A stretch of 64,000 nt of DNA from an uncultured Chlamydiae bacterium (GTDB lineage Bacteria; Chlamydiota; Chlamydiia; Chlamydiales; SM23-39), in assembly GCA_963828125.1 (NCBI GenBank), contig CAWHDP010000001.1, positions 128,001 to 192,000 on the forward strand, written 5' to 3'. The notes under the pieces are model-generated. The model did no database searches. It had not been told where the DNA came from and worked only from the letters and a program-made list of their open reading frames with translations. The first letter of the stretch is position 1, and every line of letters begins with the position of its first letter. Made by a program: the position numbers and the translations under genes. Positions 601 to 30,674 of this stretch are shown piece after piece.

Positions 601-1183
601 CTACAACACACGTGTGTTTTTTGCTGCAAGGGGAGCATGTCGTGTCGCCGCACTGAGAACAAATGACGCTCGCTGCTTTTTTGCAAGATTCACAAGAAAG
701 AGCAGGGGGATCATTTTGCATGAGTATCGTTACTTTTTTCTGCTGACAAGCGTTAATTTTTGCCACAACTTGGATTTCTAGGTCTGTGGAGGATCCCATG
801 TCATAAACATATTGGCATGTTGAGCCAGGAGATAAAAGTTGGCCTATTTGATTTTTCATCGATTGGCTGGGGTTTCCAGATTCAGAGTGAGACATATAGC
901 GGCGGCCCCCGATTGTGAATTCACTCAAGTGACCGCAACACTCAAGCCATATGCCTCTTAAAAAGGTATCCAGAAGACCTAAAGAAGCATTTTTTGGAAT
1001 CGTTGCAAAGATCCAATACATGCCAGGCTGTTCAGACCATGAGATTCGGATCAGATATCCTTCTGTCATTGATGGTGGGGGGATGTAAGATTTCAGAGCG
1101 CATGCGAGTAAATGAGCTCCTGCTTGCGCCGCAGCATACATTTTTCCGCACTTGGGGCATTTGCCTTTAGTTTTTATTTTCAT
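575..1183 (-). CDS. pRiA4b ORF-3-like (IS1096 passenger TnpR-like) protein with Zn-ribbon motifs, probably C-terminally truncated
   Basis: Motifs LDTFLRGIWLECCGHLSEF and YVYDMGSST, CxxC pairs at both ends; lacks the NSPRxGxCGY tail I recall for this family. Confidence 0.6.
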   Translation of the reverse strand: MKIKTKGKCPKCGKMYAAAQAGAHLLACALKSYIPPPSMTEGYLIRISWSEQPGMYWIFATIPKNASLGLLDTFLRGIWLECCGHLSEFTIGGRRYMSHSESGNPSQSMKNQIGQLLSPGSTCQYVYDMGSSTDLEIQVVAKINACQQKKVTILMQNDPPALSCESCKKAASVICSQCGDTTCSPCSKKHTCVVDEGDDSNS

Positions 1184-1433
1184 CGACGTTTTCCGTTTCG
1201 ATATATTTTTCTAGATATGACTCAGAGATTTCAATAGAGCTGCCATCGCCAAATTCTATTGTATATAGCCAGTCCCCAATATGAATGTTAAACTCGTTGG
1301 ACAGCTTTTCAGACTTAACCTGTTCCATTCCGCATACCACTGCAATTATTCCTGAAGGATAAGGAGGAGGTGCGTTGTGCTTAATTATTATAAGGTCATT
1401 CCATGTAAATAAATTAGTTTCTCCGCTTGTCAT
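1167..1433 (-). CDS. Small acidic hypothetical protein, candidate orphan immunity protein
   Basis: 88 aa, AT-rich, directly downstream of the Rhs immunity gene; WLYTIEFGDGSSIEI beta-rich motif. Confidence 0.5.
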   Translation of the reverse strand: MTSGETNLFTWNDLIIIKHNAPPPYPSGIIAVVCGMEQVKSEKLSNEFNIHIGDWLYTIEFGDGSSIEISESYLEKYIETENVDENKN

Positions 1434-1467
1434 GCTGGTTTTTATAGATAAATTTTTATTTTATTTC

Positions 1468-1923
1468 TCATTTTTCGAAATTTGGTTCTAGTAACTCCAC
1501 CTCTTTAAACCTTCTTTTAATCCTGTCAATCAAATCTTGATTTTTAGAGAAAACTTGCCAAAATGCACAATCTACTAATTCAATCACTACATCACAAGAT
1601 TGATACATTTCTTGATCCTTATCATAACGATGTAGAAATTCTTGATTTTTACATCCTAAAATAATTGTCTCATATATCTGAAATAACTGATTTCCTATAA
1701 AAAAGACATCGTCCCATTTTAATTTCAATCCTTCTTTAGATTTGTTTATTTTGTTTTTATAGTCGTTGACAGTGTCAGCATTTCCTGGGTTAGGTGTTCC
1801 ATCTAAAAACAAAATACACCAATTTAAATCGTTTCCTTTTTGGATTAATTTTAAAATGTCAGAAATTTTCACGTTTAAGACATTATCTTTGCTGTCTGAT
1901 ATTCGTATTCCATGAGTTTGCAT
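1468..1923 (-). CDS. Cognate immunity protein of Rhs toxin 1 (weak DUF2691-like resemblance)
   Basis: ATG overlaps the Rhs stop (TAATG) with GGAG upstream; 151 aa, AT-rich. Confidence 0.75.
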   Translation of the reverse strand: MQTHGIRISDSKDNVLNVKISDILKLIQKGNDLNWCILFLDGTPNPGNADTVNDYKNKINKSKEGLKLKWDDVFFIGNQLFQIYETIILGCKNQEFLHRYDKDQEMYQSCDVVIELVDCAFWQVFSKNQDLIDRIKRRFKEVELLEPNFEK

Positions 1924-4900
1924 TAATATCTCCATTCTGGAACAGGCTCCGGTTTACCTCTTTGCGGAGTTCCTCCTGTAGGATTTGGCTCTGGTCTATG
2001 TTGATGTGGATTTGGGTGTTTTTTCGGATATCCATGGTCAGTGAAATCAATATCACGAACGGGCTTCCCATCCTTATCAAATTCTCTAGCTTGTGGATAT
2101 TTTCCCTTACTTCCATCTCTAGTTCCTAACTCGGTGTGAGGAGCATCTGTTTCTGGTAATGGAATTCCATTTTCTGTTAAAGGCAAGGGTCTATCTGGTG
2201 CGTATACATCAGTATTTTTCCAAGATATGTTAGGCAATTTAATATCCTGAGCATGATAGGTAGTTGTTGCAAGCCCAAGACCCATCAACGCAGCACCAGT
2301 ACTTGTTGTCACTCCCAGGCCAAGAGTGAATCCACCAACAGTAACCACTTCAAGTGCAAAACCGCCGGCCATGATGGTTCCACCCAAAATGATCTCTCCT
2401 AATCCTAAGAGGTATCCTCCTATGCTTTCACCGTAAGGATCTCGATATAGAAATGGGTTATTGAAAACGTATTGATAGAGGTTTGAATGATCGATAGGCC
2501 CTAGGGGATCAGGAGTAAGCCAACGAGTCAGTTGTGGATCATAGTAACGCTTGCCGAAGTAGATAAGCCCTGTTTTTGCATCGTATCTTTTTCCTGCATA
2601 GGCATAGGGGATTGCATCTGTTAAGCCTAGCCCAAATGCATCGCAAGAGTTCTCCTTAACGATCTTTTTTGTGTTCCAATTAACAAGAGATCGGATTGTT
2701 CCTTGTACATCTTGAATAGGAGCAAAGACGCGGTTTTCAATTTCAATGGCAACGATGTTTTGATGGCCTGGTATTTTGAGCTCTTTTGCTTGGCCCTCTT
2801 CAAAAGATCCAATCTCCTCATCGTCGATATAAAGATAAGAGGTATTGCCTTTCTGCAGTCTTCTTCCAACTGCATCATAAACGAAATTTTCTCCTTCCGC
2901 TGAAATGAGCTGATCGAATGCATCAAAAATGAAGCCGGATTTTATGAGATTTCCATTTTTGTCGTATGGAAGTCCCTGGATTTGTCCTGCCTCGTCAACT
3001 GGTTGAGCTTGTCCATTTTTTTCAATGCAGTTGTAATGTTGATCATAGCATGCTATGAACTTGCCAGTTTCTGAAGTGAGCTGGGAAGCATTATCGTAAG
3101 TATAAGTGACTGCTCCTCTCCTGATAAGGTTACCTGCTTCATCGTAGACAAGTTCCTCTTTAAGGTATGGATTTATTTGGGATGTCCTTCTTACTCCGGT
3201 TTTGTCATAGGCATAGGTGGTGTGAAAGAGTCCTGTTTCTGACAATGGAAGGCCAGCTTCATTGTATCGATCATAGTTGTGTGTATAGAGGATAGATCCA
3301 CTCGGGTGTAGACGGGTAATTGTTTTTAAAAAAGGTCCTTCGTATTCATATTCAATACGGCTGTAATCGGGCAGAGTTCTTTCCAAGGGGCGATTCCAAT
3401 CGTCGTATTTACTTTCAATCCAGAGCCCATTTGAAAATTCTTCTCTTAAAGTATTGCCAAAGGGATCGAGCGTTCTTGAAAAACCACTTCCCTGAATGAG
3501 ACGCCCCAAGCGATCATAGCTGAACTCACGCGAACCTACTTTAGTCAGCTCTCCTTGAAGGTTATATTCATAGGCTAGGACGGTACCATCGGGTTTAATT
3601 TTTGTTTGGAGTTTTCCTCCTGGCGTATAGGTCCAAAAAGTCGTTCGCATCCCTCCGTCGAGCATCGAAGAGCGCAATCCTCCAGGAGTATAAGAAAAGC
3701 TTAAATGACCTTGCCGAATCAGGCGGAGTGCGCAGTCGTATTCGAATTCTTCTGAAACACACCCAGGGATTTCCCTTTTAAGAAGTAGGTCATGCGCGTT
3801 ATACGTTTCAATCGTCTCTATGTTTCTTGGATCTCTTATCGTCTTGACTGAGACTTGATTGCCTTCATCGTAGGTAATGATTGTTTTGGCCCCTTCTTCA
3901 TCCATTGTCTCAATCAAGCGATTATAAGAATCGTAGGAATAAGAAGTGATGCCTGCTCGAGTGACCGTAGCAACGAGGCCGGATGGATCGTAAGTCCAAC
4001 AAGTGACGAGACGCCCCTCGATCGATTTTTCCAGGATCTGCCCGATTTGATTGCGAAGATATGTAGTAGAACGGTCTGTTCGTTCTTCGACTGATAAAAA
4101 ACCGAGGGGATCGTAAGAAAATTTTGTTTTTCGGCCGGCTCTTTCTTCCTCTGTTTTGCGTCCTGCTAAATCGTATCGAATTTTGGTCACGATGCCTTGA
4201 GGATCGATTTCTTCGATTAAATCGTAGGCATCGTAGGAATACGAAGTAGTATAGGAACCTACGGTTTTAGAAAGAGTTCTCCCTAATGCGTCATAGGTAA
4301 AGGTTGTTTTGAGTCCGTCAGGGTCAGCTTGCGAAGCTAAAAGACCATTTTGCGCGTACTCATAAGTTTGTATGCCTCCATCTGGATTGATAACCTCAAC
4401 CGGATTGCCGTAGCTATCCACCTTAGTTCTTGTGGTGGCATCATATATATCGCTACGTTTGATTTCTCTTCCGAAAGAATCATAGGTGACTTTGAGCAAT
4501 GTTGGAGGTGATTCGATTAGGATAGGTTTATGATGGACGGGGTGGTAAGAATAACTTGTTTTTAGCCCAAGATAATCGGTTTTTTCGATTAAATCATCCC
4601 AAGCGTTATAGATAAAACGAGTGACGTGATCGTTCTCTTTGATGGAGCACAGTCTTCCTTTAGCATCGAAGGTGCGGTCTATGGCAAGTGTCCCCGAAAA
4701 AGGAATTTCATGGATACAGCGATTTCGATGGTCGTATTGGTAAGTGGCTGTGTGACCTAAGGGATTAGTTTCTTCGAGAAGATTTCCCTTTGAATCGTAC
4801 GTCCTTTCTAATATGTAAGTCAAATTCCCATCTGATCCAAAATGCTCTTCTTCGGAAATATTTCCATATTCATCGTAAATAAAATTGGTTTTATGAATAA

Positions 4901-6476
4901 GCGCCCCGTTCCAGTCGCGCTCTTCTTTCCATTGGATACGATGTAGATTAGGTCCTTGGGTGTTCAGAATGTAGTGAGTGCGAGTTCTTCCCTCTTCCGC
5001 CTCTTCGATTAAGTTATTTGCTTCATCATAAAAGTAAGAAGTTTTACGAATAGGCTTTCCCCATTCTAGGGTCGTTTTGGAGGTGGGAAGGCGTGTATTT
5101 TGTAAGTATGTATATTCAGTCCCGAGTCCATCATCTCTTTCTTCTCGAATGAGCCGGCCCCTCGTAGTGAAGGTTCGCTTAATGCAAAAAGTACCAAAAT
5201 CTCCTTCGGTTTTCTCGAGAACGGGATTCCCTTCAGGATCGCATTCATAGTTGTAGGCAATGAGGAGATTGCCGGCTCCATCTCGGGTTTCAATGCGCTG
5301 GATGTGTTGCTTGGAGTTGTAAGTGAAGGTCTTTTGATTAATGAGGGTGCCACCCAACCAATTTTCAAGAGCGGAAAGGAGGAGATTTTGATTGAAGCGG
5401 TAAATAGTAGAGGCACCGTTTCCGTATTCTGCTTTCGTCCAGCCATCTTTTTGCCCTGCAATCGGAGGATCGTAGGAAAAAAGAGTAGACCCAGATGGGG
5501 TATTTAGACGCTGCGTGCGAGCAACTGTTCCTTTATTCTTGAAATATTCAAAGGACACAGGATAGTTTTTTGCATCATAATATGAGAGCAGGCTCCTCTC
5601 GTTATATTCAACCCTGTTGGAATAAATTGGATTAGATGCCGTTGTGAGAACTGATGTCCTATAAGAAAAGCTTTCTTTCGATTTTCCTCTCTTTACCTTG
5701 CCTTTAACTTCAAATACGTCATAGTTGAACCTTGATTCTCTTCCGTCAGACCCAACGTATGCGTTTTCTCCAATTTTTTTTATCGAGGCATAAGTATATT
5801 TGCCGGATTTATCTGTAGATGTGATTCTAGATAGCCCTTGGGTGTCATATTCGTAAGCGATGCGCTTTCCATTGGGAAGAAGTTCAGCTTCTAGTCGATA
5901 TAGTGCAGAGGATTGTTTTCGATAGACGCGCTCTGTTCCGTCCGGCCAAATAATGCGCGTTGCATCTGAATCTATCGAAAATTCAATATTACGAAGATCT
6001 GCTGTACTATCCGGTTTTCCCTGTCTTAAATTGCTGAAACCGTAGGCGTTCGTTTTTAGAATTCCCTTATTGCCGCGAATTTCGAATTCCAGGACAAAAC
6101 CGCTGGGATCACGCACCTGAAAATAAGAAGAATGAAAATTAAATCCAGCCCAAAGATGGGGTAATATTGCCCACCGCCTGCTTTCTTGAGACGCCAAACT
6201 TTTCCCTAAGAGCAAACGATCGAAATCATCTTTGTCTTCATATCGACCGAGAATTTGAGGAGGCACATAGGTTCTTTTTAATGCGAGATCTTGTGCAGCC
6301 TTAATATGCAGGTCTGTTTCATGAAGGGAGACTTGTCCAGACAAAGGGGAAATATAGCCATCGATCAGAAGATTTGTACTTAAAGAGGCAATTTCATCGG
6401 GAGTTGAAGGCCCTACATTTTCGAAAGGAGCAGCGATCAGTCGGGAAGTGAAGATAAAACATAGTAACCATCGCAT
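1923..6476 (-). CDS. Rhs/YD-repeat polymorphic toxin 1 with N-terminal Sec-like signal peptide and C-terminal Ntox24-like toxin
   Basis: Start MRWLLCFIFTSRLIA with GGGGA SD; DUF6531-like ISPLSGQVSLHETDL; many YD repeats; core RYYDPQLTRWLTPDPLG...NNPFLYRDPYG; Gly-rich hydrophobic linker; tip DFTDHG..HPNPHQH. Confidence 0.92.
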   Translation of the reverse strand: MRWLLCFIFTSRLIAAPFENVGPSTPDEIASLSTNLLIDGYISPLSGQVSLHETDLHIKAAQDLALKRTYVPPQILGRYEDKDDFDRLLLGKSLASQESRRWAILPHLWAGFNFHSSYFQVRDPSGFVLEFEIRGNKGILKTNAYGFSNLRQGKPDSTADLRNIEFSIDSDATRIIWPDGTERVYRKQSSALYRLEAELLPNGKRIAYEYDTQGLSRITSTDKSGKYTYASIKKIGENAYVGSDGRESRFNYDVFEVKGKVKRGKSKESFSYRTSVLTTASNPIYSNRVEYNERSLLSYYDAKNYPVSFEYFKNKGTVARTQRLNTPSGSTLFSYDPPIAGQKDGWTKAEYGNGASTIYRFNQNLLLSALENWLGGTLINQKTFTYNSKQHIQRIETRDGAGNLLIAYNYECDPEGNPVLEKTEGDFGTFCIKRTFTTRGRLIREERDDGLGTEYTYLQNTRLPTSKTTLEWGKPIRKTSYFYDEANNLIEEAEEGRTRTHYILNTQGPNLHRIQWKEERDWNGALIHKTNFIYDEYGNISEEEHFGSDGNLTYILERTYDSKGNLLEETNPLGHTATYQYDHRNRCIHEIPFSGTLAIDRTFDAKGRLCSIKENDHVTRFIYNAWDDLIEKTDYLGLKTSYSYHPVHHKPILIESPPTLLKVTYDSFGREIKRSDIYDATTRTKVDSYGNPVEVINPDGGIQTYEYAQNGLLASQADPDGLKTTFTYDALGRTLSKTVGSYTTSYSYDAYDLIEEIDPQGIVTKIRYDLAGRKTEEERAGRKTKFSYDPLGFLSVEERTDRSTTYLRNQIGQILEKSIEGRLVTCWTYDPSGLVATVTRAGITSYSYDSYNRLIETMDEEGAKTIITYDEGNQVSVKTIRDPRNIETIETYNAHDLLLKREIPGCVSEEFEYDCALRLIRQGHLSFSYTPGGLRSSMLDGGMRTTFWTYTPGGKLQTKIKPDGTVLAYEYNLQGELTKVGSREFSYDRLGRLIQGSGFSRTLDPFGNTLREEFSNGLWIESKYDDWNRPLERTLPDYSRIEYEYEGPFLKTITRLHPSGSILYTHNYDRYNEAGLPLSETGLFHTTYAYDKTGVRRTSQINPYLKEELVYDEAGNLIRRGAVTYTYDNASQLTSETGKFIACYDQHYNCIEKNGQAQPVDEAGQIQGLPYDKNGNLIKSGFIFDAFDQLISAEGENFVYDAVGRRLQKGNTSYLYIDDEEIGSFEEGQAKELKIPGHQNIVAIEIENRVFAPIQDVQGTIRSLVNWNTKKIVKENSCDAFGLGLTDAIPYAYAGKRYDAKTGLIYFGKRYYDPQLTRWLTPDPLGPIDHSNLYQYVFNNPFLYRDPYGESIGGYLLGLGEIILGGTIMAGGFALEVVTVGGFTLGLGVTTSTGAALMGLGLATTTYHAQDIKLPNISWKNTDVYAPDRPLPLTENGIPLPETDAPHTELGTRDGSKGKYPQAREFDKDGKPVRDIDFTDHGYPKKHPNPHQHRPEPNPTGGTPQRGKPEPVPEWRY

Positions 6477-6532
6477 AAAAGTCCCCAATGTTGACGCTTG
6501 GCCCATACGAAACCCATGACTTAAGAGAAAAG

Positions 6533-6561
6533 ATTGTAACGAGAAAGGCGATTTCAATCTA
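6533..6561 (-). promoter_or_regulatory. Putative sigma70-type promoter of Rhs 1 (TAGATT-17-TACAAT)
   Basis: Lies in a block conserved upstream of both Rhs copies; copy 2 reads TAGATT-17-TATAAT. Confidence 0.5.
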
Positions 6562-6775
6562 TTGCGAATAAAGGTCTTTTGTTGCTTTGCGCGGTTCGAG
6601 CGCTGTGACTGAATCTAGAAACATCTAATTTCGATGTTTTTATAGGCGCTCTCTTTGTGTCTTGGTGCTCTCTGATGATTCACGGAAATTTTCGCCACAC
6701 TGTTGCGACTTTTGAACTGTTTGTAGATTTCGAATGGATCAAGTTATTCTAAGTCTTTAAAAATAAGATATATAA

Positions 6776-8049
6776 CTCGACTTTGCAACTTTTAGCTGCC
6801 TAACTCAAGCGGCTTGAAGCACCCGCTTCACTATGTCATCCGCCCAGTTCCACATTTCGGGCGTAATATTTTCTACGGAAGAGGTGAATTTGCCCTTCCT
6901 GGAAATTAAATTATCCCTCCATATCACCATGCGCACAGCTCTTAGCATGTCGGAAAACGTGGCTTGCTCTTTCTGGTGCCAAGCAGTGGATTCCACTTTG
7001 AGCAAACCCACCTGTTTCAGCCGATTAGCCATCATACAGACACAACTATATAATCCCATCAGTATAGGAGTCGATCGGGCGATTGCTCGATCTGACCATT
7101 GCCGTTGAGTCTCCACCCCGAGATGCTCTCGACTTTCTTCGAACGTGACCTCAAGACTCCAACGATCTACGAATAGTTCGACCATACGTTCAACAGTCAT
7201 GAGCGGATCTGTGCTCATAAGAGGTAAAGGATCCAATTTCCCCGTAGGATCTACCACTAAAGCCCATCGAATAGGTATAGGCGTCGCTCCATCTGCTCCC
7301 CACATGCATGTATCGGAAATTACACGCGCTATTCTTTTTTCTCCGCCGTACCCAACGACCTCTATTTCTTTCCATGGCAACCCCTCCAGAGACAGCATCT
7401 GTTTGAAATTTTTCAACCGGACGCCCTTTTTCGCAATACGCCCTCTTCGGCCAGGCTGTTTCTCGGCGGGGAAATCAAACAAGGCTGCATTCATCTTCAG
7501 GCGGGACACAAGAGCCACTCCAAAAGAAATGCAGTCTAAAGCCAATTGCCCTGCCGCATATCCCCCATCTCCAACGAGGATTAAAGGCCAAGTTTTCCCC
7601 ACCCACCGACGCACTTGCAAAATCATCTGACTTGTCCATCTCCAGGGGAAGTTTATCGGAGACGAAAACGAGCAACAGCTGAAACAGAATCTTTGCCGCC
7701 TTCAGAGAGGACCATTCAGCCCGATTTAAGAGGTGATGGTACTTGGAACATCCCGGTTCATACTCGAGTCCCATTGCACGCAACGCAGAGCAAATGGTTC
7801 TTTTACCCGTACATAAGAGCGTACCGAGCAAGAGGGTTAGGGCTTTTTTCCAGGAGGGTTTAGAAAAAAGTACCGAGAAAGGGAGTAGAACCGATAAAAT
7901 GTTGTGTGATAGAGAGTCCATTGGCATAGCCTTTTGTCTTTGAACAACAAAGATTATGAACGATGGGGGACTCTCTATCAATTTTTATTTTTGCAATCTC
8001 ATGGCTGACGAGCGTCAGCGAGGAAGTCATGAAATTGTACAAAGTCGAG
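6776..8049 (-). mobile_element. IS701-family element with an internally deleted, frameshifted transposase
   Basis: Terminal IR CTCGACTTTG (6776) / CAAAGTCGAG (8040-8049); N-terminal LLLGTLLCTGKRT..KYHHLLNRAEWS joined out of frame near 7640 to VGDGGY...RWSLEVTFEESREHLGVETQRQWS. Confidence 0.85.
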
Positions 8050-8050
8050 A

Positions 8051-8920
8051 TACTATGATTCTAGAAGCGGTCAATTCTTAAGCCAAGATCCGGTGTCTTA
8101 CCCGATGTGCCTAGATCTATATGCTTACGCTAATGGGGATCCAGTTAATTACTTTGATCCAGATGGTCGATTTGCGTCTTATGCTTATCAAGTGACAAAA
8201 CCTACAGTTATTGCAGGGCTAGATCATCTTACTGGTTACAGCCAAACTGTTAGGGCTGGCAATTGGCTTTCTGCTTATTGTTATGATCACAATCTTACCC
8301 ATTCAGAGTCTTTTCAAGTTGGCTCATTTAATTTGCCAAACAGCGCTATCGGCTTTATCAATGGCATTGCCAATACTAAAGAAGAGTCTATGGCAAAAGC
8401 ACGATACCTAAGTGGGTATGCAGGAGGGGCGACAGTTTATGGGGTATACAATGCATCAAACAGCGTCATTGGAGATTTAATTGATTCTGGACTAGGGCGT
8501 ATTGGAATTATGACCCCTCCAACTCAGAAAATAAAAGATCGATGGCATGATTTTTTTGCAATAAGTGGACCTGAAGCAAAATTTTTTCAGCACTGCCATA
8601 GTCATGGAGCTACTCATGTCAAAAATGCACTCTTAACTTCTCCAAAGGAAGTTCGACAACGCATTATTGTTTTAGCGATTGCTCCTGCGGAGATTGTATC
8701 TAAGACGCTATGTTATGAATCTTATAACTACATGAGTAGGCGTGATTTTGTCACCCACTTTGATATTATTGGAAAGATGAGGCACAGAGATGAGTTAATC
8801 ATATTAGAACCCCACCCAGATGCCAATTTTTTTGATCATGATTTCTTAAGTCCCACTTTTGCAGAGTCAATCAAGCGTCATACTAAAGAATATATAAAAA
8901 AATATGGAGGAATGCAATGA
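8051..8920 (+). pseudogene. Orphan Rhs C-terminal module with alpha/beta-hydrolase (lipase-like, DUF687-like) toxin tip, 5'-truncated by IS701
   Basis: Frame begins YYDSRSGQFLSQDPVSYP...NGDPVNYFDPDGR (Rhs core end) at the IS edge; tip has FINGIAN, HCHSHGA nucleophile elbow, RDFV and DHDF. Confidence 0.8.
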
Positions 8921-9576
8921 AGCGTTTTTTAAATTTTTCACTGGTATTATTTATGTTTGTTTCTGTCTTCGGTTGCACTTATTTTAGAGATCAAATGCCA
9001 GATTATGAAAAAATTGCAGATAAAATCACAAATAGAACCGCTGAGAAGCTTAAAGAAGAAAAAAAACTCACCTTAATAGGCATTGGCGGAAGAATGATGG
9101 ATGATATACAGATGATGGCCATGAGTTTCAATTATTATCAGGAAGTCAATTTAGAGCAGGCAAGAGAATTGCTAATTTATGTCATTAATGAATATCTTTC
9201 TGATATCAACAATAACCAAGATGTTAGACCTTATCTTCATGAATATCCATTTACTTCCAAAAATGTAGAAATAAGAATATTTATTTATGGCCCAGATAGG
9301 AGAACACTTCATCCGGACAAGATCGGTTACATTTCATCTATTGATGGTGTTTTGGAATATTACACTGGTGCAGATGATGATCATCCCATATGTAGAGAAA
9401 CATACACTGAGGCTTTAAGCGAGATAGCTTTCAGTCAAGGATTAGAGACTGGTGTCAGAAAGACAAACGAAGAAGTAGTAGTTGCGAAGGCTGTCGCAAA
9501 AGATGGAGCTAAAGGTGAGAGTCAGCTTGTAGTACAGGCATATAAGCTTGTGAAAGCCCATGCTGCCAGATGGTAG
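8917..9576 (+). CDS. Lipoprotein, putative immunity protein of the hydrolase toxin; C-terminus replaced by RT-derived sequence
   Basis: ATGA overlap with the toxin stop; signal peptide with lipobox VFG-C; paralog at 14992. Confidence 0.75.
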   Translation: MKRFLNFSLVLFMFVSVFGCTYFRDQMPDYEKIADKITNRTAEKLKEEKKLTLIGIGGRMMDDIQMMAMSFNYYQEVNLEQARELLIYVINEYLSDINNNQDVRPYLHEYPFTSKNVEIRIFIYGPDRRTLHPDKIGYISSIDGVLEYYTGADDDHPICRETYTEALSEIAFSQGLETGVRKTNEEVVVAKAVAKDGAKGESQLVVQAYKLVKAHAARW

Positions 9577-9802
9577 CTTAAAGCAACGAGACCGAGGCAC
9601 TCCGCAAGGAGGAGTTATTAGTCCAGTTTTAAGCAATCTATTCATGCACTATGCATTTGATGCTTGGATGAAGAGGATGTACCCGGGAAGACCCTGGTGT
9701 CGCTATGCAGACGATGGACTCATTCACCTCAAAACAGAGCAAGAAGCACAAGAGATGCTTCTCGCACTCAAGAAACGTTTTGAAGAATGTGGATTAGAGC
9801 TG
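9523..9802 (+). pseudogene. Group II intron reverse transcriptase remnant
   Basis: N-terminal QLVVQAYKLVKA joined to RGTPQGGVISPVLSNLFMHYAFD...WCRYADDG...ECGLEL; most of the RT and maturase are missing. Confidence 0.85.
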
Positions 9803-9833
9803 AGGTGGTCGATGAGGAGGCCTTTATTCGCAA

Positions 9834-9862
9834 TAGATTGAAATCGCCGTTCTCGTTATAAT
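9834..9862 (+). promoter_or_regulatory. Putative sigma70-type promoter of Rhs 2 (TAGATT-17-TATAAT)
   Basis: Perfect -10 box, 17-bp spacer, conserved with the Rhs 1 upstream region. Confidence 0.55.
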
Positions 9863-9918
9863 TTTTTCTCTGTGTCAACCGGACTTCGTAAGGCCAAGTG
9901 TCAACAGTAGGGAATGTT

Positions 9919-12900
9919 ATGCGATGGTTACTGTGTTTGATCTTCACTTCCCGATTGATCGCTGCTCCTTTCGAAAACCTAGGGCCTTCAACTCCCGATG
10001 AAATTGCCTCTTTAAGTACAAATCTTCTGATCGACGGCTATATTTCCCCTTTGTCTGGACAAGTCTCCCTTCATGCAACAGATCTGCATATTAAGGCAGC
10101 ACAAGACCTCGCACTCAAAAGAACATATGTGCCGCCTCAAATTCTTGGTCGCTATGAAGACAAAGATGATTTTGATCGTTTGCTCTTAGGGAAAAGTCTG
10201 GCATCTCAAGAAAGCAGGCGGTGGGCAATATTACCTCATCTTTGGGCTGGATTTAATTTGCATTCTCCCTATTTTCAGGTGCGTGATCCCAGCGGTTTTG
10301 TACTTGAATTCGAAATTCGTGGGGCTAAGGGAGTTTTAAAAACCAGTGCCTATGGCTTGAGCAATTTAAGACAGGGAAAACCGGATAGCACAGCAGATCT
10401 TCGCAATATTGAATTTTCGATAGATCCAGATGCAGCCCACATTATTTGGCCAGACGGAACAGAGCGCATCTATCGAAAACAATCCGCTGCACTATATCGC
10501 CTAGAAGCTGAACTTCTTCCGAATGGAAAGCGCATCGCTTACGAATATGACACCCAAGGGCTATCTAGAATCGCATCTACAGATAGATCCGGCAAATATA
10601 CTTATGCCTCGATTAAAAAAATTGGAGAAAACGCATACGTTGGGTCTGATGGCAGAGAAGCAAGGTTCAACTATGACGTATTTGAAGTTAAAGGCAAGAT
10701 AAAGAAAGGAAAATCGAAAGAAAGCTTTTCTTATAGGACATCCGTTCTCACAACAGCATCTAATCCAATTTATTCCAACAGGGTTCAATACAACGAGAGG
10801 AGCTTACTCTCATATTATGACGCAAAAGACTATCCATTATGGTTCGAATATTTCAGACATAAAGGAACAGTTGCTCGCACCCAGCGTCTAAATACCCCAT
10901 CCGGGTCTACTTTTTTTCCTACGATCCTCCGATTGCAGGAAAAAAAAGTGGCTGGACAAAAGCAGAATACGGAAACGGTGCATCTACTATATACCGCTTC
11001 AATCAAAATCTCCTCCTTTCCGCTCTTGAAAATTGGTTGGGTGGCACTCTCATTAATCAAAAAACCTTCACTTACAACCCCAAGCAACACATCCAGCGCA
11101 TTGAAATCCGAGATGGAGCCGGCAATCTCCTCATTGCCTACAACTATGAATGCGACATGCAAGGCAATCCCATTCTCGAGCAAGCCGAAGGGGATTTTGG
11201 CACTTTTTGTATTAAACGAACCTTTACTACAAAAGGCCGGCTCATTCGAGAAGAAAGAGATGATGGACTCGGGACTGAATACACATACTTAGAAAATACA
11301 CGCCTCCCTACCTCCAAAACAACCCTAGAATGGGGAAAGCCTATTCGTAAAACTTCTTACTTTTATGATGAAGCAAATAACTTAATCGAAGAGGCGGAAG
11401 AGGGAAGAACTCGTATTAGGTATATTCTTAATACCCAAGACCCCAATCTACATCGAGTCCAGTGGAAAGCAGAGAGCGACTGGAATGGGGTGCTCATTCA
11501 TAAGACGCATTTTATTTACGACGAATATGGGAACTGTATTGTTGATCCAGATGGAGGCATCGAGACCTATGAGTACGCGCCAAATGGCCTTTTAGCTTCG
11601 CAAACTGACCCTGACGGCCTCAAAACAGCTTTTACCTATGACGCTTTAGGGAGAACTCTTTCCAAAACAGTAGGTTTCTATACCACTTTTTATTCTTACG
11701 ATGCCTACCATTTGATCGAAGAGATCGATCCTCAAAGCCTCACTACTACATTCAAATACGATTTAGCAGGACGCAAAACAGAAGAAGAAAAAGCTGGTCG
11801 AAAAACAAAATTTTCTTACGATCCACTCGGCTTTTTAGCAGCTATTGAAAGAGGACATCGCCGGACTACATATCTTCGCAATCAAATCGGGCAGATCCTG
11901 GAAAAATCGATCGACGAGCATCTATTAACTCGTTGGACTTACGACTCGGCAGGCCTCGTCGCAACAGTCCTGCAAGCAGGAATCTTTTCATATTTCTACG
12001 ATCCTTATGATCGTCTTATCGAAACAATCGATGAGGAGGGCGGCAAAACAACCATCAGCTACGGAGAGGGTGAGCAAATCCTAGTCAAGACGATGCGAAA
12101 TCCAAGAAATGTAGAAACAATCGAAACTTATAATGCGCATGACCTGCTCCTTAAAAGGGAAATTCCTGGCTGTGTATTAGAAGAATTCGAATACGATCGC
12201 GCCCTTCGACTGATGAGACAAGGACCATTAAGCTTTTCTTATACTCCTGGAGGATTGCGCGCTTCCATGACGGAAGGAGAAATTCGAACGACTTTTTGGA
12301 TCTACACCCCCAGTGGAAAACTCCAAACAAAAATAAAACCCGACGGTACTGTCATCGCCTATGAATATAATCTTCAAGGAGAACTGACTAAAGTGGGTTC
12401 CCGCGAGTTTCGGTATGATCCAAATGGTCGGCTCATTCAAGGAAGCGGATTTTTTAGAACGCTCGATCCCTTTGGCAATATTTCAAGAGAAGAATTTTCA
12501 ACTGGTCTTTGGATTGAAAGCAAATATGACGACTCGAATCGCCCCACAGAAAGAACGCTGCCCGATTACAGCCGTATTGACTATGAATATGAAGGACCTT
12601 TTTTAAAAACAGTCACCCGTCTACACTCGAATGGGTCTGTCCTCTATACACACAACTATGATCGATACAATGAAGTTGGACTCATATTATCAGAAACAGG
12701 CCTCTTCCAAACCACCTATGCCTATGATAAAACCGGAGTAAGAAGGACATCCCAAATAAATCCATACCTTAAAGAGGCGCTTGTCTACGATGAAGCGGGT
12801 AACCTTATCAGGAGAGGAGCAGTCACTTATACTTACGATAATGCTTCCCAGCTCACCTCAGAAACTGGCAAGTTCACAGCATGCTACGATCAACATTACA

Positions 12901-14015
12901 ACTGCATTGAAAAAAATGGACAAGCTCAACCAGTTGACGCAGCAGGACAAATCCAGGGACTTCCATACGACAAAAAAGGAAATCTCATAAAACCCGGCTT
13001 CATTTTTGATGCTTTCGATCAGCTCATTTCAGCTGAAGAAGATTTCATTTATGATGCAGTTGGAAGAAGACTACAGAAAGGGAATACCTCTTATCTTTAT
13101 ATCGACGATGAGGAGATTGGATCTTTTGAATCAGGGAAGGCAAAAGAACTCAAAATACTCGGGCATCAAAATATTGTTGCCATTGAAATTGAAAATAGCA
13201 CCTTTGCTCCCGTTCAAGATGTACAAGGAACAATCCGATCCCTCATTGATTGGAAAACAAAAAAGCTCGTCAAAGAGAATTTTTGCGATGCATTTGGATT
13301 CGGGTTAACAGATGCAATCCCCTACGCCTATGCAGGCAAAAGATATGATGCAAAAACAGGTCTTATCTACTTCGGTAAGCGCTATTATAATCCAGAGCTG
13401 AATCGTTGGCTTACTCCTGATCCTTTGGGGCCCATCGATCATTCAAACCTCTATCAATACGTTTTCAATAACCCATTTCTATATCGAGATCCATACGGCG
13501 AAAGTATAGGTGGATATCTTCTAGGGTTAGGAGAGATCATTTTGGGTGGAACTATCATGGCCGGCGGTTTTGCACTTGAAGTGGTTACTGTTGGTGGGTT
13601 CACACTCGGCTTAGGGGTGACAACGGGAACTGGAGCATTATTGATGGGACATGGGCTTTCTATGACTACGTATCATACTCAGGATCTTAAGGCTCCCACG
13701 ATTTCTTGGAAAAATACTGATGTATACGCACCAGATAGACCTCTTCCTCTAACTCCAGCAGGAGTTCCAATCTCGGATACGGATGCGCCCCATACTCAAC
13801 TTGGGACAAAAGATAGTAAAAGAAGACCCGGTGAAAAATATCCTCAAGCTAGAGAGTTTGATAGCAACGGAAAACCGGTCAAAACTATCGATTTTACGGA
13901 TCATGGGGAACCCCCTATTCATCAAAATCCTCATGAGCATCCTTGCAAACCTAACCCAACAGGAGGAACTCCTAAAAGAGGAGATCCGCAACCGCTAGAA
14001 AATTGGAAATATTAA
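9919..14015 (+). pseudogene. Rhs polymorphic toxin 2 (paralog of Rhs 1), with a frameshift at T7 10911-10917 and an in-frame deletion of about 154 codons
   Basis: Collinear with Rhs 1 across ORFs 9898..11292 and 11037..14015; same signal peptide, core and DFTDHG..HQNPHEH tip. Confidence 0.9.
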
Positions 14016-14491
14016 TGTTTAATCCAAAATATCGAATTTTGATTACAAGCAAATGCTTTCCTGAAGATGGAGTTATAGGCTTAGGTACCCAATTGATTTC
14101 GATTCTTGACTTTGTTAAAAATTATATACCTCCGCATATATGGTATGCAGCTGATGTTGAAGTAGTTGGAATAAATGCTGAGAAACAGAACTTTAGCAAT
14201 ATACAAATAGCTCCAATAGGGACTGATGTTCAATTTATTGAGTACTGCTCTGGAATCGAACAATTCATCTGGGGAGTGTTCTTATGTATTGATAAAAAGT
14301 ATTCATCTCAAAATGTTATAGGTGTCGAATTGGAAACAGAAGACAAACCATTTCGCTCAATAGATTCTGATGGAATTTTAATAGAAATCAGAGCATTCGA
14401 TACCACTTACTTCGGAATATACGCCGAAGATCTTGAATTGATTACAAAAATAGCAAAACAATACAGGATTGCCATCGAACAAATTAAATAG
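14015..14491 (+). CDS. Cognate immunity protein of Rhs toxin 2
   Basis: TAATG stop/start overlap with Rhs 2; 158 aa, acidic, AT-rich. Confidence 0.75.
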
Positions 14492-14550
14492 GGATTTTCC
14501 CGACTCCTACCGATCCCCCCTGCTACAAGCAGGAAAAAATAGAGGTTCAT

Positions 14551-14757
14551 ATGACACACAAAAGATTGCAAAATAAAATAGCTCTTATAACTGGAGGCTC
14601 TCGAGGAATAGGCGCAGCCATTGCCAAGCGTTTTGCTAAGGAAGGATGTCATGTAGCTATTAGCTATGCAGAGTCCAAAGAAAAAGCCCTTCTTTTATTG
14701 AAAGCACTCGAAAAAGAGGGAGTCAAAACTCTAGCTGTACAAGCGGATCAGGCAAAC
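14551..14757 (+). pseudogene. Short-chain dehydrogenase/reductase, N-terminal fragment
   Basis: [24 protein letters not shown]ossmann motif; cut after QADQAN. Confidence 0.85.
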
Positions 14758-14758
14758 T

Positions 14759-15016
14759 CCTGCCGTGATTGTTCCTCAAAAATTATGTTTTCGATCTTAT
14801 AACTATATAAGTAAGAGGGATTTTGTCACTCATCTGGATGTCTTAGGCAAGCTAAGATATGGCAATGAGTTAAAAGTCTTAGAACCTCATCCTCAAGCCA
14901 GTTTTTGGGATCATGAAGTTTTGAGTCCTACTTTTAAAGATGTATTAAAGGATCATATTTCTGATTATATTAAAAATTATGGAGGTATCAAATGGAGTTT
15001 TTTTGTGATTTTTTAA
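14759..15016 (+). pseudogene. C-terminal fragment of a second alpha/beta-hydrolase toxin tip
   Basis: [33 protein letters not shown] aligns by eye with the end of 8051..8920. Confidence 0.8.
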
Positions 15017-15594
15017 AAATTCTGCGTGTCTGTGTTTTTGTTTTTTGTTGTACATCTTGTAGTTCTTCAGCAGATTATGAAAAAATAGCTAATAAAATTA
15101 CGGAAAAAACTGCAAAAAAATTGAAAGAGCAAAAGAATCTATGTCTTGTAGGAACGGGCGGGCAAATGATGCATGACATACAGATGATGGCAATGAGTTT
15201 TTATTATTATCAAGAAGTTGATCTCCAAGCAGCTCGCAAACTTATTGTATCCGCACTTGAGGAATATTTAGTAGAGATTAATAATAGCCAAGAAATAAAG
15301 CCTTATCTTCATCAGAATCTTTTTACTGCTAAAAATATTGAAATAAGAATTTGGGTTTATAATCCGGATAGATCTGAACTTCCTTTGGACAAAATATATT
15401 ACATTTCCTCTCTCAATGGTGAGGTTAGCTATTACATTCGTGCAAAGGATCGCCAAGCAATTCATGAAGAAAGTTATGAGGAAGCATTAACAGAAGCTAC
15501 GGACAATCAAAATGTTGCAAGGCAAATTAATCCAATAATAGGCGGAAATTTTCAGCAGGAGAATGTCTTCAGAGAAGCAATAGCAAAAGATTGA
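14992..15594 (+). CDS. Putative lipoprotein immunity protein, paralog of 8917..9576; stop codon supplied by an IS3 end
   Basis: Shared DYEKIA.KIT..TA.KLKE.K.L.L.G.GG.MM.DIQMMAMSF.YYQEV motif; Cys-containing signal region. Confidence 0.75.
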   Translation: MEFFCDFLKILRVCVFVFCCTSCSSSADYEKIANKITEKTAKKLKEQKNLCLVGTGGQMMHDIQMMAMSFYYYQEVDLQAARKLIVSALEEYLVEINNSQEIKPYLHQNLFTAKNIEIRIWVYNPDRSELPLDKIYYISSLNGEVSYYIRAKDRQAIHEESYEEALTEATDNQNVARQINPIIGGNFQQENVFREAIAKD

Positions 15595-16408: not shown

Positions 16409-17036
16409 CTAAAGGGCCAGCAACTTCTTTATAATGCGTTCAAAACTCAGCTTCTTTAACTTTCCAGACGGGTCCTGAGCCTCTAGCTTGGACCAATCAG
16501 CAGGAGAAGCTTGATTCACCCAATTAGACAATTGCTTTTGAAATGTCTGCAGCCATTTGGGGTGCTGCTGGGAGAGGAAAGCAAATTCAGCAAGCGCTCG
16601 ATCGGAAAAATCCCCCAACTGCGTGGTTACGTACCAAACCCCATAGAGATCCTTGAGCATCTTTGATGCGCTCTTCCGTCTGGTAAACGTAAGCCCCTTG
16701 TGGAAGATCCATGCTCCAGGTGAGACGACCTTTCCCGCTTCTCCTGAATAGGTTCGGAATTCTATTGTCGTTTGCAGGCTCAGCGTCAAGTAGCTCAAAG
16801 GCTGCTGCTTCATTGAGATATTTGGCGATGTTCTTTTTAGAGATCTCAGGAACCTTTCTGGGAATCAACGAGTCAATATCACGCGTTCCAACAGGGGGAT
16901 TTTCGAGCTTGGGATCGGCGAGGTAAAGCTTGTAAATGAAAAGAGCAAAACCGCCTCCGATAACAACGAACTCTCGCCATGGTCCCAGTGACTTTAAAAA
17001 TTCTGAAATGATTTTGTCTTCTTGAATCTGTTTCAT
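16409..17036 (-). pseudogene. Nucleotidyltransferase-fold toxin (AbiEii / GSU2403-like type IV TA), broken by an internal deletion/frameshift near 16805
   Basis: VVIGGGFA..GTRDID N-terminal motif in one frame; SPGAWIFHKG..KMLKDLY C-terminal motif in another. Confidence 0.75.
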
Positions 17037-17764
17037 TTGTTCTTAAGGCTTTTGTAGATGCGTTTCAGTTCAGGTGCTCGCTGGGCTATAAATTCTGCTT
17101 GTTCTTGTCCTCGCAGGGGAAAATGATAAAGATCTAAAAAGGTAAGGAGGAGGGGGCAAATATCAATTTCTTTGCCGTTCTTCCTATTTTGCTTGAGCAG
17201 CATTTTGTAGTAAGGCTCGATCAACAAAACCTCATACCCTCTTTCTTGTGGATCTAATTGCAGAGCGCTTTCTAATTTCGGTCTAATAGAAGGGTCAAGG
17301 ACATACAATTCTAATCCTTTTAGATTGGTATTCTTAAGCCCAAGCGCTTCGGCTGCTGAATGAAGAGCCAAGATCACGTTTTGTTCGAGCCCAGATTTCT
17401 TTAAAGCCTTGAACCACTCTGACTTTCCAGAAAGAGCGGAAGCGTAGGTTCTGATTTTGCATTTTTTCACGATGCTATAATGCTCTAGCCAGCTTTCTAG
17501 AAGTTCTTTTGGTTTGTTAAAGGAAAACCTCTTGGAGGTTCTGATTCCTTCAACTTGAAGAAGTCCTTTCAGTACCAGAATATTGAAAACACGTTGAACC
17601 AGACCGAGGCTTACCCCTGCTTCTTTAGCAACTTCTCTCAATGAGAAGTTTACTTTGAAAAGCCCTTCTCGAAGCAGCCAATCAAGCACGAGAGAGGACT
17701 TATCTGCATAGACATTCCCTTCTGCTGGATCTTCATTTGAACTTACTAGGAAACGACCTTTCAT
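17033..17764 (-). CDS. AbiEi-like type IV antitoxin / wHTH regulator
   Basis: SLREVAKEAGVSLGLVQRV HTH, KPKELLESW, LTFLDLY..RGQEQAEFI; GGAGG SD; ATGA overlap with the NTase. Confidence 0.8.
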   Translation of the reverse strand: MKGRFLVSSNEDPAEGNVYADKSSLVLDWLLREGLFKVNFSLREVAKEAGVSLGLVQRVFNILVLKGLLQVEGIRTSKRFSFNKPKELLESWLEHYSIVKKCKIRTYASALSGKSEWFKALKKSGLEQNVILALHSAAEALGLKNTNLKGLELYVLDPSIRPKLESALQLDPQERGYEVLLIEPYYKMLLKQNRKNGKEIDICPLLLTFLDLYHFPLRGQEQAEFIAQRAPELKRIYKSLKNK

Positions 17765-17776
17765 TGCGACCTCCTT

Positions 17777-17831
17777 CTGTTCATTATAATACACTGTTCA
17801 ATATATATTGAACAGACATAAATATTGAACA
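17777..17831. promoter_or_regulatory. Palindromic operator upstream of the abiEi-like gene
   Basis: Perfect 22-bp palindrome CTGTTCAATATATATTGAACAG (17794-17815) plus extra TGTTCA/TGAACA half-sites at 17778 and 17826. Confidence 0.75.
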
Positions 17832-18072
17832 AATGGACCCCAAGGAAGAGGTTTCTTAAAAATTCGTTACGAAACTTATTTTTAATGACTTAGAACAATT
17901 TTAACTCGAACTTTCGAAAATTCAGAATCAAATAATAAGGTTCATCCGACAAATGCGTACCTGGATTCGTGTAGGTGATAAAGTCGCAATTTAAAATATT
18001 CAATATCTCGAAACCCATAAGCCTGCCTTTTCATTGTCTTGATTTTGGCAAGTGCTCATAAAATTGAGGTAA

Positions 18073-18549
18073 TCACTCCAGAAATGGGACTCGGTTACCA
18101 ATCTGCATATGGACCCTTTTGCCGCAATGTTCACAAGGAAGTGACACACCATAAGTACACCTATTGCATTTGTCACAATGCCACTCTCTCCAATCTCTAC
18201 ATGTTTTGCAAATCTCACAATGCCAACTACAATTGTCTGCAGCTACATCGTTCCAGCAAAAAGAAAACCAATAAGTTTCTTGGCATTTAGAACAGTCATA
18301 TTCTCCCAGCAAGGATTTCAAGGGAATGCTTTCGCATTCACACGGCAGTAGTATTTCTTTGGATAATTCTTTATCTTTAAGGTCTTTGACGATACGAATA
18401 TTTTGTATAGCACACAATGCCAGATGTTCCGTGTCTTGTCCATTCAGAGGGTTATGGCAATTAACACAACGACATTTCTCAGTACATCCTTGACCGTTTT
18501 TTAGACAATCGCATCGATATGTGGAACAACTTGTTTTACATTTACACAT
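18073..18549 (-). CDS. Cysteine-rich passenger protein with N-terminal tesmin/TSO1-like CXC domain
   Basis: 24 Cys in 158 aa; CxCx3Cx4CxCx6Cx3CxCx2CxN followed by two HCxxCxxC units. Confidence 0.75.
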
Positions 18550-18639
18550 TTTCTAATTCGCTTCTGAAAGCTTGCTAAAACTGGATTATTCTAGCCCAGG
18601 AGGCAAGCATCTTGCAATGTGATTTCTCCTGGCAGCGAA

Positions 18640-29634: not shown

Positions 29635-30105
29635 TTACGGCTCCTCGCTGCGGGAATAAATCTCGCCGGACTCGAAAAAAAAAGCAATTTCTTTCCGCGC
29701 ATTCTCTAAAGAGTCGGATCCGTGTACCGCATTGCGCTGCACGTCGGTCCCAAAGTCGGCCCGGATGGTTCCAGGCTCGGCTTTAGCAGGATCGGTAGCT
29801 CCCATGACTCTCCGATTGCGGGCCACCGCATCGTCCCCCTCTAGCACCTGTACGAGAATCGGTCCTGATGTCATAAACTGAACTAAATCATTGTAAAACG
29901 GGCGATCCTTGTGGACGGCGTAAAACTCTCGAGCCTCCTCAGGGGTGAGCTGAACCATTTTGGCCGCCACAACATGCAGTTCAGAGGATTCAAGATAGGC
30001 GTCGATCTCCCCTAGCTGATCTTTCTCGACTGCATCGGGCTTGATGATCGAGAGCGTCTGCTCAGCAAAGAGCGACGCTGCCGCAAAACAGAGGAGCTTA
30101 AACAT
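29635..30105 (-). CDS. ndk: Nucleoside diphosphate kinase paralog with signal peptide
   Basis: [14 protein letters not shown] + [12 protein letters not shown]...RNAVHGSDS. Confidence 0.9.
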
Positions 30106-30108
30106 GTC

Positions 30109-30555
30109 CTACGACCTCGCAAAAATTTCGCTCGGCTTAAAGAAAAATGCAATCTCTGCTTTCGCATTCGCTAGACTGTCCGATCCGTGCACCGCATTCC
30201 GCTCGATCGACGTCGCAAAGTCGGCGCGGATCGTCCCAGGCGCGGCTTTGGCTGGATCGGTCGCCCCCATAATTTGACGATTCCGGGCTACCGCGTTCTC
30301 CCCTTCAAGAACCATCACAAGGACGGGTCCTGACGTCATAAATTCAACCAGCTCCTGAAAAAAAGGGCGGTCTTTATGCACGGCATAGAATGATTTCGCT
30401 TGCTCGACCGATAAGTGAAGCATCTTCGCTGCTGTCACATTCAGCCCTTCTCGCTCAAAATATTCAATAATATTTCCAATCATGTTCTGCCCAACGGCAT
30501 CAGGCTTAATGATCGATAATGTCTGTTCTAAAGTTTGTGTGGTAGTTTGGGCCAT
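30109..30555 (-). CDS. ndk: Nucleoside diphosphate kinase
   Basis: [33 protein letters not shown]. Confidence 0.95.
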
Positions 30556-30674
30556 TACATTCTCCATAGGGTATTTTGTAGTGACATTGTAAACCAAGGG
30601 GGTAATAAATCTCACGAAGTTCTGTTGAAAAATGGCGAAAAATTTTAAAATCACCAGTTTCCAGGGGGGAAAAG

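Follow-up and report, generated by a model that had tools for sequence, protein, structure and literature searches.

Predicted Sec-exported Rhs proteins with tip-specific partner genes: a candidate toxin-immunity system in a chlamydial genome with no detected type VI secretion genes

WapA of Bacillus and Streptococcus is a Sec-exported YD-shell toxin with downstream immunity genes, and the Tle/Tli pairs join a lipase effector to a lipoprotein immunity protein. Teneurin-like proteins are also Sec-exported, with no obvious delivery machinery, according to excerpts of PMC13018210. For RHS proteins, the main text of Zhang et al. (2012; PMC3482391) lists signal-peptide toxins, labelled 'T2SS/Sec-dependent' (T2SS, type II secretion system), across all bacteria. 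The same text names chlamydiae as bearers of other tips and of Ntox24, whose RNase activity was predicted only, describes immunity-linked toxins of endosymbionts as relatively rare and finds hardly any immunity proteins in Waddlia. Here we analyze a 64,000-nucleotide stretch (hereafter the window) from an uncultured Chlamydiae bacterium, in which two Rhs genes, termed RhsA1 and RhsA2, and two orphan Rhs tips are each followed by a probable immunity gene. With moderate confidence, we propose that these genes belong to a Sec-exported polymorphic toxin-immunity system that operates without a type VI secretion system (T6SS) and is aimed at other diderm bacteria. The source genome (G000; 2.37 Mb, 95% complete, two contigs, with the window at positions 128001-192000 of contig C1) finds its best-matching read sets among soil metagenomes of one study.

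RhsA1 (1923..6476, minus strand) encodes 1517 aa and consists of a short signal peptide, a DUF6531-like plug, a YD shell, an autocleavage motif, a hydrophobic segment and an Ntox24-like tip. It is open from an ATG at 6476, where the protein begins MRWLLC, to 1923; the listed open reading frame (ORF) starts at a TTG at 6557, and homologues begin at the same MRWLL. A preliminary description of this DNA had anticipated RHS repeats, DUF6531 and Ntox24, with no PAAR or VgrG domain. Domain scans of RhsA1 recovered the RHS repeats (PF05593, E 3e-47), a TIGR03696 core and a weak DUF6531 match, and the Pfam scan found neither PAAR nor VgrG; the Ntox24 (PF15529) match of the tip (E 0.007) reaches 17.1 bits, under the Pfam cut-off of 24. 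Signal peptides were judged throughout with our own n-h-c heuristic and two controls rather than with SignalP. By this measure the first 15 residues (6432..6476, minus strand), which end in L-I-A, form a putative Sec signal peptide, and Arg2 and Ala15 within it are invariant among 7-8 aligned relatives.

The C-terminal arrangement of RhsA1 is as the preliminary description had it. A DPxG...DPxG aspartyl autoprotease motif (2430..2510, minus strand), recognized by the motif itself and the TIGR03696 match, is followed by 168 aa comprising a Gly-rich hydrophobic segment (2214..2429, minus strand), which is a candidate membrane-entry module, and a 96-aa His-rich tip (1923..2213, minus strand) with several conserved His, predicted to be an RNase. 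Four of six relatives of this tip match the Ntox24 profile (best E 3e-6), and Ntox24 is found, as a weak signal, in 12-22% of the members of its Atlas neighbours. Y39, H60, H66, H70 and H72 are invariant in all six Ntox24-like tips of an alignment restricted to these six, and a profile of the tip matched no PDB sequence up to E 10. Among the best 120 Ntox24-like homologues (546 weaker ones lie beyond), nine are named by organism, eight of them chlamydial and one labelled Verrucomicrobia. The ATG of the adjoining gene (1468..1923, minus strand; GC 0.29) overlaps the toxin stop codon. Its product is soluble and DUF2691-like (E 0.0018, under the cut-off), its family comes after the same tip at loci L039 and L065, and it is probably the immunity gene of RhsA1. 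NCBIfam offers no name for any tip or partner.

RhsA2 (9919..14015, plus strand) is a paralogue of RhsA1 whose shell is shortened and whose tip is likewise Ntox24-like. The two proteins are 91% and 84% identical in two blocks, and RhsA2 is without approximately 460 nt (approximately 154 aa) of shell relative to RhsA1. It does not form one ORF in the window, as its frame is broken by a 1-bp shift near 10910-10912. The earlier count of two long signal-peptide Rhs genes therefore holds for RhsA1, which is open and passes the heuristic, and needs amending for RhsA2, which is split in the window and shortened. Short-read contigs from two runs of one study, X1 (which may be the source sample of G000) and X2, have one base more at the shift and cross the deletion without a gap; because of this, the frameshift is probably an assembly error, the deletion is probably genuine and RhsA2 is probably an open but shortened gene. 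X3 carries an additional base too, a different letter and one position further on, and X4 shows none. Overlapping the end of RhsA2 is its probable immunity gene (14015..14491, plus strand), from a second, distant DUF2691-like subfamily that comes after the same tip subtype at L033, L038 and L045. RhsA1 and RhsA2 thus each overlap a small low-GC DUF2691-like gene; the two partner families show a weak profile match (probability 52%, E 1.4e-4, 32 columns), and the two partners, compared by BLASTP, are not significantly similar.

This pairing of tip and downstream gene extends through the genome, where an Rhs core query has 14 matches. All 20 of the listed toxin-like genes or tips of G000 are followed by a same-strand gene, at -55 to +3 nt. 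One of these pairs joins a barnase tip (PF00545, E 9e-12) to a downstream barstar gene (PF01337, E 2e-17); Imm53 was matched behind another tip (E 6e-36). Near-identical shells carry different tips, both within G000 and across 77 homologues. Six pairs from G000 and 30 from other loci entered a pairing test; eight were dropped (four duplicates, four broken or short tips), leaving 28 to be clustered, and loci at which the motif pattern failed were skipped. The downstream family was common to 34 of 46 same-tip pairs (28 loci), as compared to a mean of 4.5 and a maximum of 20 after shuffling, with none of 20,000 shuffles reaching 34, a comparison that the relatedness of the genomes makes look stronger than it is. 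The remaining 12 of the 46 are cross pairs of the two DUF2691-like subfamilies, behind the two Ntox24-like tip subtypes. Such tip-specific downstream families support the toxin-immunity pairing suggested previously.

The hydrophobic segment varies independently of the tip (12 against 9.3 expected by shuffling; 3,733 of 20,000 shuffles), which argues that shell, segment and tip recombine as modules. A 19-residue hydrophobic stretch past the cleavage site is present in 75 of the 79 Ntox24-like carriers that could be parsed (of 103) and in 61 of 63 A-type carriers (of 77), and in 0 of 84 carriers of a hydrolase tip (of 173; the rest have no parsed motif or a C-terminus out of range). Nuclease-type tips thus go with a hydrophobic segment and soluble partners, and hydrolase tips with no segment and a lipoprotein partner. 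Tips that would cross a membrane and have soluble antidotes, together with a non-crossing lipase that has a periplasmic antidote, point to a diderm bacterium as the target.

Some partner genes lack a toxin. An 88-aa gene at 1167..1433 (minus strand) has homologues directly behind one tip type at L034, L054 and L056, and a tblastn search of G000 gave no match to that tip; we therefore regard it as an orphan immunity gene. With it, the estimate of at least four immunity genes in the locus becomes five probable ones. A pRiA4b ORF-3-like gene (575-1183) adjoins it and is also found behind its homologue at L054, so that it may travel with the cassette. Arrays of orphan partners occur in relatives (L031, L032, L038 and L041), some of them for tips present in G000, and also at L113 and L114. 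Orphan immunity genes that match the tips of other chlamydiae point to chlamydial targets, and other chlamydiae sharing the host cell are, judged from these sequences, fairly probable opponents. The kin competition proposed in the preliminary description gains from this match, with the target itself reached by argument.

The organism looks intracellular, as it has four full-length TLC nucleotide transporters and a secretin that we take to be of the T3SS (type III secretion system) kind. Host-directed effectors, that is, RNases and lipases acting on the eukaryotic host or its vacuole with downstream genes that shield the producer during export, would suit such an organism. Excerpts of PMC6717882, which place Sec/T2SS substrates of C. 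trachomatis in the host cytosol as well, are compatible with this explanation, as is the recurrence of the hydrolase domain among predicted Inc proteins, and the main text of Zhang et al. (PMC3482391) reads most toxins of intracellular bacteria, Waddlia for example, as host-directed. We nevertheless consider it unlikely: immunity genes without a toxin (1167-1433 and the arrays at L031, L032, L038, L041, L113 and L114) would be useless for self-protection, and tip-specific partners combined with tip swapping suit an arms race between bacteria rather than host targeting.

The two orphan tips reported earlier in the locus are both present, but they are DUF687-like hydrolase tips of another Rhs type, and one is only a remnant. 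The first (8093..8920, plus strand) is an Rhs 3' end with the last DPxG and a complete alpha/beta-hydrolase tip bearing a Ser-Asp-His triad. Its likeness to full-length Rhs begins at 8048, where it is cut off at the end of an insertion sequence (IS; 6773..8052, minus strand; a DDE transposase by Pfam matches) that has a 99.9% copy at G000:C2:614339-615618. The tip is 94% identical to the one carried by a signal-peptide Rhs of 2,818 aa encoded on contig 2. Joined to it by an ATGA overlap is a lipoprotein gene (8917..9576, plus strand) with a lipobox-like FGC, encoding a probable periplasmic immunity protein; X1 and X2 have one base fewer at 9511, and past approximately this position an assembly error may have altered the tail. 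The remnant (14765..15016, plus strand) retains a hydrolase tip's final ~80 codons, joined to the end of a fragment of a short-chain dehydrogenase (14551-14802), and is followed by a second lipoprotein of the same family (14992..15594, plus strand), 50% identical to the first. The orphan tips thus represent a second, lipase-like class with a lipoprotein partner, which the earlier reading had overlooked.

The hydrolase tip matches DUF687 (PF05095) with 37.7 bits (cut-off 25; E 1e-9; profile positions 37-179). An alignment-based model (pLDDT 88.8; a single-sequence model reached only 32) has an alpha/beta-hydrolase fold, with cutinase (Z 13.7, rmsd 3.5, 165 aligned) tied with thioesterase and carboxylesterase as the nearest structures. 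Across 143 hydrolase-tip homologues, the triad Ser is kept in 143, the Asp in 142 and the His in 141. By modelled fold and triad conservation, the tip is predicted to be an active-type alpha/beta hydrolase. Tle/Tli models in Pfam and NCBIfam gave no match at cut-off for either tip or partner.

A lipoprotein-family gene follows 15 of 17 hydrolase tips, 12 of them with a lipobox pattern (the profile is circular for 14 of its 15 matches), and the family is absent from the 28 partners of non-hydrolase tips examined. Independent pairings were found in genomes G162, G172, G118, G138 and G095, with the lipoprotein match starting within ~85 nt of the tip end, and tandem lipoproteins follow one tip in G230 (five) and G023 (four). 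The modelled complex of tip and lipoprotein scores 0.90, as compared to 0.01 for the best control. Of 157 solved complexes, 116 attained the mark on this scale, and of 215 mismatched pairs only 2 did; runs share at least 64% of contacts, and the partner has a pLDDT of at least 89. The lipoprotein is therefore predicted to bind the tip. The predicted interface (tip residues 118-122, 136-147 and 188-199) excludes the triad (103, 151 and 182), so that binding need not mean inhibition.

An interface that avoids the catalytic residues would also suit a conserved module for remodelling envelope or inclusion lipids, in which the lipoprotein anchors or activates the hydrolase Rhs and only the nuclease-tipped genes are weapons, as would the presence of the tip in 242 and the lipoprotein in 222 of 300 Chlamydiota genomes. 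Housekeeping of this kind seems improbable to us, slightly more so than host targeting, given a copy number ranging from 0 to 12, tandem arrays of diverging lipoproteins, orphan tip-lipoprotein cassettes, and the fact that shells of several types carry the tip past their Rhs cleavage motif.

Several variants of these proteins were observed. In a 2,820-aa Rhs type (L017:3087-11543; four genome copies), ~1,200 unassigned helical residues separate the signal peptide from DUF6531 and are a candidate region for receptor binding or for a stalk. Hydrolase-domain proteins of 485 aa stand alone at L027:1565-3022 and L028:1368-2825, with no shell or signal peptide, each followed by a small membrane protein. 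An Rhs-like protein at L026:1926-6533 has its DPxG at residue ~480 and, beyond it, another 1,050 aa in which YD repeats form a second set. Short Rhs proteins of 480-560 aa (L023:1055-3133 and L024:2355-3803) carry a signal-like N-terminus almost directly on the core, one of them with a barnase tip and barstar.

To place the signal peptide of RhsA1 in context, the heuristic was applied to full-length relatives, where it passed 54 of 69 proteins of the A type, 50 of 65 with a hydrolase tip and 22 of 35 that are Ntox24-like; the controls passed in 121 of 1033 long G000 ORFs and 2 of 1144 internal Met starts. A mis-called start, or the absence of just the basic residue, accounts for many of the misses. 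Models of VgrG, TssC, PAAR, Hcp and EagR found no match in the 95%-complete genome, while their controls matched in E. coli. The idea of Sec export without a T6SS is thus supported across the genome and, by the survey given below, across the phylum, and none of the VgrG, PAAR and EagR models revealed a T6SS adaptor elsewhere in the genome. What had been missed is a T2SS: GspD, GspE and GspF are clustered at 1.563-1.568 Mb of contig C2. Searches for the phage tube protein gp19 and for OMP6 were uninformative, as their controls gave no match.

These observations suggest the following course. Rhs proteins would cross the inner membrane via Sec, as the heuristic signal peptide indicates, fold in the periplasm into a YD shell and, from the conserved motif, cut their own C-terminus at DPxG. 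Exit across the outer membrane might then proceed, as the likeliest of the routes considered, through the chlamydial T2SS into the inclusion lumen, a tentative suggestion by analogy to C. trachomatis CPAF, which reaches the lumen by Sec and T2SS (excerpts of PMC6717882); vesicles, lysis or an orphan TpsB are other conceivable routes. Nuclease-type tips (Ntox24-like in the window, barnase at another place in the genome) would cross the inner membrane of the target by means of the hydrophobic segment and be countered by soluble antidotes, whereas the DUF687 lipase-like tip would act from the periplasm, with no segment and a lipoprotein antidote. Tips, entry segments and partners would be shuffled by recombination in IS-rich low-GC islands. 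The tips would be toxic, and their partners would neutralize them.

Three TpsB genes are present in G000, none beside an Rhs gene. One adjoins a gene for a TpsA-like protein of 9,950 aa (G000:C2:1149430-1180967), and the other two have no obvious large partner. The Rhs proteins contain no TPS domain or FHA repeats, and those scanned gave no match to SpvB; TcA/TcB were not searched for in the genome. Among the genes listed for G000 and 11 related loci, no dedicated transporter adjoining Rhs was seen.

We next asked how widely this architecture occurs. Among 300 scored Chlamydiota genomes (G045 is unscored, the genomes are related, and a miss means 'not found' rather than 'absent'), matches were found to the Rhs core in 237, TssC in 10, the hydrolase tip in 242, the lipoprotein in 222 and Pfam DUF687 in 58, with TssC in 0 of the 46 genomes of the family of G000. 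The survey proposed with the preliminary description thus finds the Rhs core in most of the phylum and TssC in few. Where named, relatives of the G000 Rhs proteins come from Chlamydiae metagenome-assembled genomes, Rhabdochlamydia and Criblamydia; a few others bear the label Verrucomicrobia or just 'bacterium'. The genomes with TssC include G128, G141, G075, G296, G105 and five more (L073-L077); at L076, a TssB-like gene comes before TssC and two further T6SS-like genes come after it, a T6SS being unexpected in chlamydiae.

One family, f20, with genomes of 1.0-1.3 Mb and full-length DUF687, is taken to be Chlamydiaceae. It has the Rhs core in 1 of 29 genomes and the lipoprotein in 1 of 29, and its main genus has neither (0 of 24 for both). 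DUF687 matches in f20 are mostly stand-alone frames of 560-670 aa; those outside f20 are confined to the first ~210 positions of the profile and often lie within frames of 1,650-1,900 aa. A profile built from Rhs tips only finds the f20 DUF687 proteins with E values down to 3e-15. DUF687 proteins such as CT326 are predicted Inc proteins (excerpts of PMC3048545), and degenerate catalytic residues, described for DUF687 proteins in excerpts of PMC11878206, are seen in the f20 proteins, whereas the Rhs tips keep the triad. On these profile matches we regard the homology of hydrolase tip and DUF687 Inc proteins as firm. G187, from another genus of f20, has a degenerate stand-alone copy with membrane segments beside a secretin gene, as well as tip halves on two contig ends (the join is not shown), one in a 1,645-aa frame and one ahead of a lipoprotein-family gene.

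In trees the f20 DUF687 proteins group together (support 100/96; 96), without the stand-alone copy of G187. An origin of DUF687 from within the Rhs tips is unsupported by the tree, as an AU test rejects neither a single clade of Rhs tips nor a sister relation (p 0.56; 39 rows, long branches); that the DUF687 family of Chlamydia originated from an Rhs hydrolase tip is possible. PMC10584680, considered as a source, concerns another DUF number. A wider scenario, in which environmental chlamydiae that share a host cell wage war across the phylum with T2SS-released Rhs proteins of two warhead designs, one cytoplasmic and one periplasmic, without an injection machine or an obvious receptor-binding domain, and the pathogenic lineage lost shell and lipoprotein and kept the lipase as inactive DUF687 Incs, strikes us as speculative and rather unlikely.

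The locus lies in a low-GC island, with positions 1-29000 of the window at 41% GC as compared to 51% further on, and ISL3, IS66 and other DDE elements are present there in many copies. A reverse-transcriptase fragment like those of group II introns (9560..9841, plus strand; RVT_1, E 2e-16) lies ahead of RhsA2. An island so full of IS copies and gene fragments, with several Rhs genes split or truncated in G000 and relatives, would also be expected of selfish or decaying cassettes, that is, toxin-antidote pairs kept by addiction and spread by IS, whose shells are freed only on lysis or never reach a target; Ntox24 also occurs in type II toxin-antitoxin systems (main text of PMC3482391). We hold this to be the least likely of the explanations weighed, as intact genes of 1,500-2,800 aa have retained their signal peptides, cleavage motifs and triads across most of the phylum's families. 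The window further contains an AbiEi-type antitoxin gene followed by a split partner, probably AbiEii-type (16409-17794), an IS66-like element (18048-20662) with at least seven near-identical copies and a Cys-rich 158-aa ORF weakly matching tesmin/TSO1 CXC, and two nucleoside diphosphate kinase genes in tandem (29635-30654).

Several points weigh against a Sec-exported system aimed at diderm bacteria. To the overstatement by the shuffle test, the sub-threshold Ntox24 score, the interface outside the triad and the host-directed reading of Zhang et al. are added four others. The hydrolase tip, at 242 of 300 genomes, is unusually conserved for a polymorphic warhead, and the partners differ from the Imm50 and Imm53 that the main text of Zhang et al. 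lists for Ntox24 (PMC3482391). None of the Rhs loci of G000 was seen to have a gene for a T2SS, a TpsB or another transporter beside it. Finally, no receptor-binding domain was recognized in A-type proteins, which leaves entry into the target unexplained.

If the proposed system is real, toxin-immunity pairs and orphan immunity arrays would be the rule among environmental chlamydiae, in a phylum nearly without T6SS; obligate intracellular bacteria are not known to fight conspecifics often. The genes would add many new families of toxins and immunity proteins, offer a case of needle-free exit and entry by a folded Rhs shell, and provide a possible origin for an uncharacterized Inc family of Chlamydia. 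They would also be candidates that can be tested for a part in superinfection exclusion or in the way chlamydial symbionts protect amoebae, as Neochlamydia does against Legionella (PMC11323580).

Compared with known systems, the chlamydial proteins most resemble the 'T2SS' RHS toxins in the main text of Zhang et al. (PMC3482391), sharing signal peptide, RHS repeats, variable tip, adjacent immunity gene, orphan cassettes and polyimmunity loci. As that class, including a Simkania URI toxin with its immunity gene, was described in 2012, the idea is older than the preliminary description implies; unlike in the account of Zhang et al., immunity-paired Rhs proteins are found here in most environmental chlamydiae. 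Outer-membrane predictions of the Heinz type also list a chlamydial Rhs cluster (excerpts of PMC2811131). With T6SS Rhs effectors (RhsA/Tre23, Tse5 and RhsP) they share the YD shell and core motif, with PDB matches to E 5e-34, but G000 has no detected PAAR/VgrG, EagR or T6SS, and a signal peptide and post-cleavage hydrophobic segment are found instead. The Rhs proteins are unlike CdiA/TpsA, having no TPS domain, FHA repeats or adjacent TpsB. Their likeness to WapA, and to teneurin-like proteins (excerpts of PMC13018210), would be that of a Sec-exported YD-shell toxin with a downstream immunity gene; they differ in that no wall-binding domain, S-layer domain, lipoprotein anchor or teneurin superfold was recognized and in belonging to a diderm intracellular bacterium.

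Like Tle/Tli pairs, the second class combines a Ser-Asp-His alpha/beta hydrolase with a lipoprotein directly downstream, often in tandem copies, but the hydrolase is carried in an Rhs shell and not by a T6SS. Its tip has the same domain, in both search directions, as the DUF687 Incs CT326, CPn0066, CPn0069, CPn0381 and CPn0882 (excerpts of PMC3048545 and PMC11878206). Those are stand-alone membrane proteins of 560-670 aa with degenerate residues and neither shell nor lipoprotein, whereas the Rhs tip ends at the domain, without the C-terminal transmembrane bundle of DUF687, and keeps its triad. DUF687 does not appear in the main text of Zhang et al. (PMC3482391), and in the open-access literature, which does not cover subscription journals, we found nothing published on the lipoprotein family, on the system at the scale of the phylum or on the link between DUF687 and Rhs. 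Taken together, the class itself was already known, and what we did not find described in that literature is its phylum-wide scale, the pairing of hydrolase and lipoprotein, and the homology to DUF687.

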